From assembly GCF_044324875.1 (NCBI RefSeq), contig NZ_CP172185.1: DNA of 64,000 nt. One strand, 5' to 3'. Under the pieces are notes generated by a model that saw nothing but the letters and a program-made list of their open reading frames with translations, did no database searches and was not told the DNA's origin. The stretch's first letter is position 1. Each line of letters begins with the position of its first letter. This stretch comes from Escherichia coli (GTDB lineage Bacteria > Pseudomonadota > Gammaproteobacteria > Enterobacterales > Enterobacteriaceae). Positions 6,029-7,549 of the stretch are shown piece by piece. The translations under genes were made by a program, and so were the position numbers.

Positions 6029-6045
6029 GTATCTGCCATGCGTTA

Positions 6046-6072
6046 AAAGGGGAATTAACTTCCCCTTTTTTA
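6046..6072 (+). terminator. rho-independent terminator after rraA
   Basis: aaggggaattaacttcccc followed by tttttta; ends 3 bp before the next ORF. Confidence 0.5.
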
Positions 6073-6075
6073 TAC

Positions 6076-6762
6076 ATGGACGTATTCGTGCAGAATATTA
6101 TTCTTTTATTTATATATTTATTACTTATAGCCGTTAACCATTTCCGCTACAAATTTCTTTTATCTGGCAACGCGGGTGAAATGATTTTATATTTTGCTAA
6201 CGTATTTTTTAACCCACTTGCCGTATCATTTATTATCGCCACAATCATCTGTATAACGATAAAAAAAAGAAGCAGCCGTAGCTTTATTCGCGGCACTTGT
6301 TGGTTAATGGGATTATTTCTTATCTATAGCAGCTATACGGTGTGGGAACGACACAGCATATGGGATTATACTTTCCCGGGGCCAGGTATCACCGTCACGG
6401 TTCCGAGCAAACAGTGGGTTGCCAATATAGTAAAACAAGGACCAACCCTGGTGACTCGGGATGCCCATGCTATTTTAGCTATTGTTGCCTTCTCACAAAA
6501 TGAACTCGGTGTGCATTCAATCGAGGAACTTACCGCGACTCAAAACGGAACTGCAGAAATGCATGTTTGTGATGTTCAGGGATTTGCCTGCGCTTATCAG
6601 GAAGGAGTGCAAACAATGAGTGATGGCAAAGTAAGACATGCTATTTTCATGACTCTACTGGATAACACTAATTTGATACAACTGGTCGCAGCCATCGACC
6701 CAGATTATTTGGACGAATATCAAGAAGAAGTAATGAAAATGATGCTTTCTGCCCGTCCATGA
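6076..6762 (+). CDS. hypothetical membrane protein, paralog A of a tandem pair (accessory, AT-rich)
   Basis: 228-aa ORF; 2-3 predicted N-terminal TM helices then a ~140-aa soluble domain; clear paralogy to the next ORF; very low GC. Start uncertain (no obvious SD; abuts the rraA terminator). Confidence 0.6.
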   Translation: MDVFVQNIILLFIYLLLIAVNHFRYKFLLSGNAGEMILYFANVFFNPLAVSFIIATIICITIKKRSSRSFIRGTCWLMGLFLIYSSYTVWERHSIWDYTFPGPGITVTVPSKQWVANIVKQGPTLVTRDAHAILAIVAFSQNELGVHSIEELTATQNGTAEMHVCDVQGFACAYQEGVQTMSDGKVRHAIFMTLLDNTNLIQLVAAIDPDYLDEYQEEVMKMMLSARP

Positions 6763-6794
6763 TCTGATGTGCATATTAATAATAAGGGATTGAT

Positions 6795-7511
6795 ATGAGA
6801 TACGTTATCTTATTAATACTATGGATAATAACTGCTTTTCTTAGTCATCTTCAGCACAGTAACCTACTGTCTGGAGATCCTGGCATGGTTGGCGAGTATA
6901 TCGGTTCAGTATTTCTGGGGCCGTTATTACTTCCCGTGCTTGTGTCAGGTATTCTGTGCGCATTCACTAAAAAAACGCGTAACTTCGCCAGTTTTACTCG
7001 CGGGTGCTGCTGGGTATTGGGAGTCCTGCTTTTATCCAACGTCGGCAATACGTTTCGTCTGTTCACCCCGTGGCACTATACGTTTGAGAAGGCAGCTATT
7101 TCCGTGACTGTCCCAAACCGACACTGGAATACGGTTTCTATTAGTACTGATAAAACCATTGATATAAGAAGTGAAGATAATAGCGTCTTTATTTCTGCTT
7201 TCCGCCTGCCCGCAGGACGTAGCGCCGATGACTCGCTGGAAGAGTTAAAGAAGATGCAGCGAGACAATCTCAAGGATCAATACAATGAAGAAACCTTCCA
7301 GTTTCATGATTGTAATGCCAAACATTTCACCTGTAAGTATCAGGATGTGTTGATAAATTTTGATGGTCAGCAGAAAAGAACCATCAGTGTTTATCTTGAA
7401 GACACCCCCAGGGCTGTGGGGATCATTGCATTAATGGAGCCAGATACGGCAGATAAATATCGCCAACAGGCGATGGAGATTATGTTGTCTGCTAAAAATA
7501 CAGTGAAGTAA
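6795..7511 (+). CDS. hypothetical membrane protein, paralog B of a tandem pair (accessory, AT-rich)
   Basis: 238-aa ORF with SD aagggat 7 nt upstream; shared blocks with paralog A (LLSG, KK..SF.RG.CW, I[TS]VTVP..W, C-terminal MLSA). Confidence 0.65.
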   Translation: MRYVILLILWIITAFLSHLQHSNLLSGDPGMVGEYIGSVFLGPLLLPVLVSGILCAFTKKTRNFASFTRGCCWVLGVLLLSNVGNTFRLFTPWHYTFEKAAISVTVPNRHWNTVSISTDKTIDIRSEDNSVFISAFRLPAGRSADDSLEELKKMQRDNLKDQYNEETFQFHDCNAKHFTCKYQDVLINFDGQQKRTISVYLEDTPRAVGIIALMEPDTADKYRQQAMEIMLSAKNTVK

Positions 7512-7516
7512 AAAAT

Positions 7517-7535
7517 AAGGCGCCTTGCGGCGCCT
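7517..7535. terminator. hairpin between the convergent paralog B and zapB
   Basis: aggcgccttgcggcgcct palindrome; the A-run upstream gives a T-tract on the minus strand (zapB). Confidence 0.45.
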
Positions 7536-7549
7536 CTGCGTGGAAGAGA

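Follow-up and report, generated by a model that had tools for sequence, protein, structure and literature searches.

The alpha-beta-alpha sandwich of the Mog1/PsbP fold recurs as a binding scaffold of the cell envelope, in DcrB, in LpqN, in immunity proteins of type VI secretion systems (T6SS) and in Eag chaperones. DcrB (PF08786, formerly DUF1795; known from Escherichia coli and Salmonella, PDB 6e8a) is a conserved core lipoprotein of the inner membrane that also serves the injection of phage C1 DNA across the inner membrane. The Eag chaperones (EagT6/PA0094, PDB 1tu1; SciW, PDB 6xrb), which likewise belong to DUF1795, are soluble cytoplasmic proteins that bind hydrophobic helices and are encoded beside prePAAR/Rhs effectors, while the immunity proteins TplEi/Tli5 (PDB 5h7y), Tsi3 (PDB 4luq_C) and the C-terminal domain of Tli4 (PDB 7wdk_B) are periplasmic. 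PsbP, its PsbP-like relatives and Mog1 (PF01789; PDB 2xb3, 3jcu_P and 1jhs) belong to photosystem II or Ran biology. Here we describe a pair of genes, A and B, lying between rraA and zapB in a 64,000-nucleotide stretch of E. coli DNA (contig NZ_CP172185.1; the whole stretch is called the window below). Their products make up an uncharacterised family of membrane-anchored periplasmic proteins with a PsbP/DcrB-like domain, and the pair is not a freshly imported cassette.

The gap between rraA (5543-6028, plus strand) and zapB (7550-7813, minus strand) is filled in the window by two open reading frames on the plus strand, A followed by B, as an earlier note made from the sequence alone had described. 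The maximal frame of A, from an ATG, covers 6076-6762 (228 aa) and gene B covers 6795-7511 (238 aa). In K-12 the spacing of rraA and zapB is 84 bp, so that the pair is indeed extra relative to that strain and not core there. The additional DNA amounts to 1484 bp (6029-7512), its left limit being the rraA stop codon and its right limit, from the K-12 alignment, falling at about 7512, just 5' of a GC-rich hairpin. The two proteins are tandem, diverged paralogs with 30% identity over 232 aa (BLASTP, E=3e-35), in line with the note. Most of the sequence blocks it listed as common to both can be found (LLSG, KK..SF.RG.CW, I[TS]VTVP..W, H.C..F.C.YQ and MLSA) but IDPD is not shared, since B has only '.PD' there.

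Each product is predicted to be an inner-membrane protein of about 230 residues, in which three N-terminal transmembrane (TM) helices precede a periplasmic Mog1/PsbP-fold domain of about 145 residues. This agrees with the multi-helix anchor and soluble domain of some 140 residues previously proposed for both. Hydropathy detects the first two hydrophobic segments, and the models of A and B both show three long N-terminal helices. The AlphaFold2 model of B, calculated from a 23-sequence family alignment, has a predicted local distance difference test (pLDDT) score of 86.6 and a predicted template modelling (pTM) score of 0.75. It places helices at residues 2-26 (TM1, 6798-6872), 29-57 (TM2, 6879-6965) and 64-90 (TM3, 6984-7064); the remainder, residues 91-238 (7065-7508), forms a domain that is rich in beta strands and includes two helices. 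The model of A, from a 9-sequence alignment, is mediocre (pLDDT 67) and was used for secondary structure only, but the order of its elements is that of B: in the numbering of the 228-residue frame, TM helices lie at about residues 3-30, 33-61 and 68-93, with the Mog1/PsbP-like domain at about 94-228. Helices 2 and 3 are joined in both proteins by a strongly basic loop (KKRSSRSFIRG in A, KKTRNFASFTRG in B). From the positive-inside rule the N-terminus and this loop are strongly predicted to be cytoplasmic, and the C-terminal 145 or so residues periplasmic.

The only residues that are invariant, or nearly so, throughout the family are, in B numbering, P107 and W111 of the VP..W strand and the cysteines C173 and C180. 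In the B model these cysteines oppose each other across the hairpin formed by residues 171-175 and 178-189, and Cys165 and Cys172 are similarly placed in A. This cross-strand pair is predicted to form a disulfide bracing the domain, and its geometry would fit a periplasmic location. A metal site at the H..C......C motif was considered and rejected: the histidine is not conserved outside the enteric clades, whereas the two cysteines are.

Comparison of the B domain with known structures shows it to be a Mog1/PsbP sandwich. The highest comparison score was obtained with 3lyd (13.7), followed by BT_1490 (11.8), PA0094/EagT6 and a cyanobacterial PsbP (both 11.6), LpqN (11.0), TplEi (10.0), SciW and Mog1 (both 9.4), DcrB (9.3), Tsi3 (8.2) and the C-terminal domain of Tli4 (Tli4_C, 6.7). 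Foldseek searches of AFDB50 recovered family members in Shigella boydii and Klebsiella oxytoca and, beyond the family, hundreds of proteins labelled 'DUF1795' or 'PsbP C-terminal domain' at around 1e-8, some of them with an N-terminal three-TM domain of RDD type. We regard the structural assignment of A and B as solid.

This kinship is scarcely visible at the sequence level. Neither protein has a significant match in Pfam, NCBIfam, PADLOC or PHROGs, where only sub-threshold noise was seen, including YgiW OB-fold (0.15) and NMT1_3 (0.048). The DcrB/DUF1795 family PF08786 is matched by neither A nor B nor any of 23 family members in a table reaching E<=0.1; the sole DUF1795 label is the name 'DUF1795 domain-containing' carried by the UniRef cluster of B (P0011). 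The PsbP family PF01789 is also unmatched by A and B, and one relative in 23 has a PsbP match with an i-E of 3.4e-3, above the 0.001 line. A sequence search of the PDB with two profiles (A2 and A3) gave only TM-helix noise. The statement in the note that no family could be recognised thus holds for sequence families, but a fold superfamily can be assigned, albeit one that brings no function with it.

Set against the described systems, A and B agree with each in part. DcrB has a lipid anchor where A and B have three TM helices: there is no lipobox cysteine after a signal peptide in either, the N-terminus being a three-TM bundle. DcrB is moreover a core protein whereas the A/B family is sporadic and fast-evolving, and the conserved cysteine pair is a feature of the latter, not of DcrB. 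Unlike the cytoplasmic Eag chaperones, the A/B domain is predicted to be periplasmic and is fused to TM helices of its own, and there is no PAAR, Rhs or VgrG gene nearby. The periplasmic T6SS immunity proteins share the location predicted for A and B, and like them they tend to occur as diverged tandem paralogs and to be present or absent from strain to strain. They differ in that A and B have no adjacent cognate effector and no T6SS, rhs, cdi or orphan-immunity cluster, in that A and B have a polytopic anchor in place of a signal peptide or lipobox, and in that A and B occupy a stable, vertically inherited slot; nor is there any sequence similarity. PsbP and Mog1, as noted above, have no significant sequence match to A and B. 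The closest architectures are those of AFDB proteins joining an RDD-type three-TM domain to a PsbP-like domain, or TM helices to DUF1795 (for example a Brevibacillus YckC-like protein; Foldseek matches 14, 15 and 18). However, identity is 11-14%, the root-mean-square deviation over whole chains is large, A and B have no RDD match in Pfam, and those proteins are also uncharacterised. A and B are best described as a new family by sequence and a variant by architecture, inside the known Mog1/PsbP fold superfamily.

The breadth of the family depends on the search used. Word-indexed homolog searches returned copies from Escherichia and Shigella only, and a scan of GTDB genomes with a further alignment (A4) found Escherichia species only, although the peptide patterns used there are narrow and uninformative on other taxa. 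A profile of A and B orthologs run against 1.84 billion representative proteins retrieved 32 clusters, about 17 of them full-length (227-241 aa). Named sources of the family include E. coli, E. albertii, Shigella, Atlantibacter subterraneus, Kluyvera ascorbata and several Enterobacter species. The neighbour-joining tree has five groups: an A-type clade (A with P0004, P0028 and P0031), a B-type clade (B with P0029, P0030 and the second gene of the enteric locus L016), a Kluyvera-type clade, an Enterobacter-type clade and a distant clade (P0049-P0055). The context of P0049 in the last of these looks non-enteric and has no conserved neighbours. Another distant member, P0046 (977-1423 of contig L029), adjoins a DUF4225 gene on the opposite strand of a short metagenomic contig. 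Truncated clusters of 133-170 aa are also numerous in the databases for both proteins. One 376-residue protein of Shigella dysenteriae 1617 (P0027) matches 39% of the length of B at 99% identity and is fused to an IS3-type transposase with rve domains, showing that the locus has been disrupted by an insertion sequence (IS) in that lineage.

Within E. coli the pair is a minority trait. In a megablast search of 5,426 complete genomes with positions 5543-7813, the flanks were recovered from 5,425 and the complete insert from 658; searched on its own, the insert is found in 679 of these genomes (about 12%), always on the chromosome. Carriers include O157:H7, O145 strains and many others, while the pair is absent from K-12 and from around 87% of the complete genomes.

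Three lines of evidence bear on how long it has been in place. The first is its position. Wherever an enterobacterial contig extends far enough for the position to be assessed, a family gene stands directly downstream of rraA on the same strand; among named genera this slot is conserved in no fewer than four (Escherichia, Atlantibacter, Kluyvera and Enterobacter), and other enterics have it too. The downstream side varies. At L016 an A-type and a B-type gene are followed by an IS200-like gene and then zapB; in Kluyvera an esterase/major facilitator superfamily/AraC block with pfkA, not zapB, comes next; and a further enteric locus also has pfkA downstream. One contig (L004) ends 153 bp upstream of the family gene, too short to show whether rraA is there, and has zapB-glpFK downstream. 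The neighbours seen across these contexts are rraA, zapB or pfkA, glpFK and menA, and there is no conserved partner gene in any genomic context examined. RraA is 92-100% identical across the loci as against 22-51% for the family protein, and the terminator hairpin that follows rraA is conserved across the loci of different genera.

The second line is divergence. Between E. coli and E. albertii the synonymous divergence (dS) of B is 0.29 and that of rraA 0.27. Orthologs of A-type are known from E. albertii (P0004) and as P0028 and P0031, the paralog clades have been retained differentially, and both types are present in another species at L016; from the sequence relationships, we place the A/B duplication before Escherichia. 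The third is the lack of any sign of mobility. At the window locus no integrase, tRNA or IS was seen, and flanking direct or inverted repeats, examined as possible insertion scars, were dismissed as short matches at chance level. No copy occurs, as DNA or protein, on any of 50,697 phage records or on a true plasmid, the sole 'plasmid' match being a 4.9-Mb record whose size points to a misfiled chromosome. An origin from a phage, or a role in superinfection exclusion, was rejected on the same phage search, the only phage matches being weak BFVD fold matches to phage lipoproteins with a similar domain. With cross-genus synteny, matching dS, no mobility and an old duplication, the K-12 state is best read as a loss, and the horizontally acquired cassette of the earlier note is contradicted.

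A second form of the locus has B only. It is found in E. albertii, E. whittamii, some cryptic-clade strains and about 20 complete E. coli genomes, and carries in place of A some 190 bp of very AT-rich non-coding DNA. Since this stretch is bounded by the rraA hairpin and the ribosome-binding site of B that are also present in the A+B form, both forms are old.

Some loci do show mobile or unrelated DNA close by. In E. coli SCU-115 (L032, NZ_CP054368.1) a P2-like prophage with integrase, Cox and helix-turn-helix repressor genes (6487-12484) is integrated about 100 bp 3' of rraA, a point equivalent to about 6029-6100 of the window, so that the rraA 3' intergenic region is also a phage attachment site. 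P2-type Ogr, gpD and gpU genes lie a few kb downstream at L022; the IS200-like gene of L016 (6761-7123) encodes a Y1 transposase and separates the B-type gene from zapB; and in Atlantibacter an NlpA/MetQ-type lipoprotein gene on the opposite strand (L017, 3796-4614) lies between rraA and the family gene.

Base composition is atypical, as the earlier note observed. The GC content is 40.6% for gene A, 43.4% for gene B and 41.6% for 6029-7512, compared with 50.6% for the whole window, and GC at third codon positions (GC3) is 0.38 for A and 0.46 for B against 0.51-0.60 in rraA, menA and glpF. The DNA is thus relatively AT-rich as first described, but gene A is not one-third GC. The same deviation is present in every genus, with family genes at 33-44% against flanks of 52-56% and differences of 10-20 points (L004, L009, L016, L017, L022, L024 and L026); the lowest GC3, 0.25, is that of Atlantibacter. 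Low GC is therefore a property of the family and not proof of recent import. One possibility is that it reflects weak expression and AT-biased mutation, another that it comes from occasional allelic replacement via the conserved flanks. Other low-GC stretches lie at 33000-35000 (0.41-0.45) and 53000-59000 (0.395-0.45) of the window, whose minimum is in the 57-58 kb bin.

The reading frames and their substitution patterns show every sign of real genes. The 238-codon frame of B is intact in all eight Escherichia loci compared (E. coli lineages, E. albertii, E. whittamii and cryptic clades), and the ratio of nonsynonymous to synonymous divergence (dN/dS) is 0.10-0.29 in pairwise comparisons of these, except for the near-identical pair of the window and L002 (13 substitutions) where it is 0.44. 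Gene A is intact in four Escherichia loci with dN/dS of 0.27-0.45, and the values for rraA are 0.00-0.06; dS across the compared loci reaches 0.4. Given intact frames and a dN/dS of 0.10-0.45, both genes are real by the evidence of their sequences. Taking the anatomical and evolutionary parts of this account together, we consider it very likely that the architecture is as described above, that the locus is a long-term resident, vertically inherited and repeatedly lost, and that selection on its genes is purifying but relaxed.

The start of each gene needs some comment. Downstream of the rraA stop codon lies a plus-strand spacer (6029-6087), which contains an intrinsic-terminator hairpin, recognised by folding, terminator scanning and conservation, and directly after it a weak Shine-Dalgarno (SD) sequence of gene A. 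The hairpin with its T-run (AAAAGGGGAA-TTAAC-TTCCCCTTTT, 6045-6075) has a stem at 6045-6054/6060-6069 and a T-run to about 6075, also on the plus strand, with a folding energy of -21 kcal/mol (z = -4.75). The hairpin followed by 'ACAAGGATGT..ATG' is kept at four loci of other genera (L016, L022, L024 and L026), and the hairpin is found in B-only Escherichia loci too. In Escherichia loci of the A+B form, at L016 and in Enterobacter, the SD and start of the family gene come about 15-20 nt past it. For gene A, residue 5 of the long frame is a methionine in other strains (MDVFMQN...) where the window has a GTG codon, and the Prokaryotic Genome Annotation Pipeline (PGAP) starts A in other strains at the position equal to window 6088. 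At L016 the sequence after the hairpin, TTTTTTATACAAGGATGTATTT-ATG, aligns with TTTTTTATACATGGACGTATTC-GTG of the window. For these reasons the true start of A is, from sequence comparison, most probably the GTG at 6088, giving a gene of 6088-6762 on the plus strand and a protein of 224 aa.

Gene B is annotated too short. PGAP and RefSeq begin it at an internal ATG (6885, 208 aa), as in the annotations at L002 (2843-3469), L021 (2357-2983) and L003 (3113-3739). However, the ATG at 6795 is preceded at 5 nt by a plus-strand SD sequence, AAGGGA (6784-6789), and the 30 residues that RefSeq omits (MRYVILL..., 6795-6884) are conserved across genera; the stretch 6774-6834 is kept at 95-100% in B-only loci. 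We accordingly assign the start of B, by sequence conservation, to ATG 6795, and the RefSeq model loses TM1.

In the A+B form the space between the rraA terminator and gene A is too small for a promoter, and a promoter scan found none on the plus strand in the 3' part of rraA. Transcription of the pair is therefore probably by read-through from rraA. In other respects the genes stand alone.

What might such proteins do? Since the Mog1/PsbP fold is an envelope binding scaffold, A and B would be membrane-tethered periplasmic binding modules, possibly assembled as A/B hetero-oligomers, whose task would be to keep a protein or a hydrophobic ligand on the periplasmic side of the inner membrane. There they might intercept an agent entering the periplasm from outside, for instance a toxin of the contact-dependent or colicin type, or part of a phage. 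Dispensability, rapid divergence, diversification of the paralogs and presence/absence polymorphism modestly favour a protective role of this kind, resembling that of an orphan immunity or exclusion protein but outside any mobile defence cassette, and the occurrence of the same fold in periplasmic T6SS immunity proteins also counts for it. We put this reading forward tentatively, and the immunity or defence interpretation of the earlier note stands unproven.

Much can be said on the other side. No toxin, secretion-system, phage or defence gene adjoins the pair in any genome examined, whereas orphan immunity genes are usually beside rhs, vgrG or cdi loci or on mobile elements and the present locus is stably vertical. 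PADLOC-DB has no family for either protein at E<=1, PHROGs has no match and the BFVD matches are weak. The fold cannot separate the possible roles, because DcrB, LpqN, PsbP and Eag proteins score alike. Both regions of B have a dN/dS below 1 (0.15 for the TM part and 0.25 for the C-terminal periplasmic domain), with no overall signal of positive selection, and the TM region, being at least as conserved as the periplasmic domain, suggests more than an anchor. Neither protein was found in the searchable parts of an O157:H7 proteome dataset, and the topology, the disulfide, expression by read-through and any binding partner all have the standing of predictions. All of these points weigh against a protective role.

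The close rival is that A and B are DcrB-like accessory proteins, anchored periplasmic scaffolds that would assist a process of the cell's own envelope, for instance the maturation of lipoproteins, homeostasis of lipids or the membrane, or the work of a transporter, and would be needed in some niches only. DcrB in E. coli and LpqN in mycobacteria would be the parallels. In favour are the stable vertical slot beside housekeeping genes, purifying selection, conservation of the TM domain and the absence of ties to mobile elements, toxins or defence systems. Less easily accommodated are the absence of the pair from some 87% of E. coli genomes, the extreme divergence across genera in which the proteins encoded next door share over 90% identity, the differential retention of tandem paralogs, and the lack of both a lipobox and a match to PF08786. 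We consider this role only somewhat less likely than the protective one. It is unlikely that the periplasmic domain is a factor exploited by some phage for DNA injection, as DcrB is by phage C1, its frequent loss and its divergence being the result of selection for resistance. A DcrB-like fold at the outer face of the inner membrane, patchy loss and rapid divergence are compatible with that idea, but there is no direct evidence for it, many other proteins match the fold as closely as DcrB does, and purifying selection with long retention in several lineages implies a benefit to the host.

The remaining explanations concern the status of the locus. That it is a recent, horizontally acquired AT-rich immunity or defence cassette could be argued from GC and GC3 values below those of the flanks, both in the window and in every genus examined, from its absence in K-12 and most E. 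coli and from the tandem paralogs, yet it is most improbable in view of the cross-genus synteny, a dS equal to that of the flanks, the want of mobility signs, of phage or plasmid copies and of a PADLOC match, and a left junction that is simply the conserved rraA terminator. A decaying, poorly expressed remnant on its way to loss, which the weak SD and GTG start of A in the window, the missing promoter space, the truncated clusters, the IS-disrupted Shigella dysenteriae copy and the proteins' absence from the searchable O157 proteome might suggest, has very little to commend it when frames are intact with dN/dS of 0.1-0.45 over dS up to 0.4, both paralog types are conserved in another species and structure prediction is confident.

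Upstream of rraA lies menA (4512-5450), and zapB is followed by glpF and glpK. The hairpin at the right limit of the additional DNA, GGCGCC-TTGC-GGCGCC (7517-7536; not assigned to a strand, and located by K-12 alignment, a minus-strand terminator scan and folding), is homologous to the rraA/zapB intergenic terminator of K-12. As judged from its sequence it acts as the terminator of zapB on the minus strand, and it probably terminates gene B as well. An Rfam scan of 5400-8300 gave no match near threshold.

The claim made here is a modest one whichever role proves correct, given a fold superfamily already described and the lack of any known phenotype. It nevertheless concerns a pair carried by O157:H7 and other pathogenic lineages and not by K-12, and which laboratory genetics has consequently never examined. 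What would have passed for an 'O-island-like' pair of hypothetical genes is recast as an enterobacterial locus of great age, dispensable yet passed on vertically, with a concrete predicted architecture of three TM helices and a disulfide-braced periplasmic domain of PsbP/DcrB fold, and with the RefSeq start of gene B corrected so that TM1 is restored. If the protective reading is true, A and B would represent a chromosomally fixed orphan immunity or exclusion function lying outside secretion and defence loci; if instead they are DcrB-like, they would be a strain-variable component of inner-membrane and envelope homeostasis.

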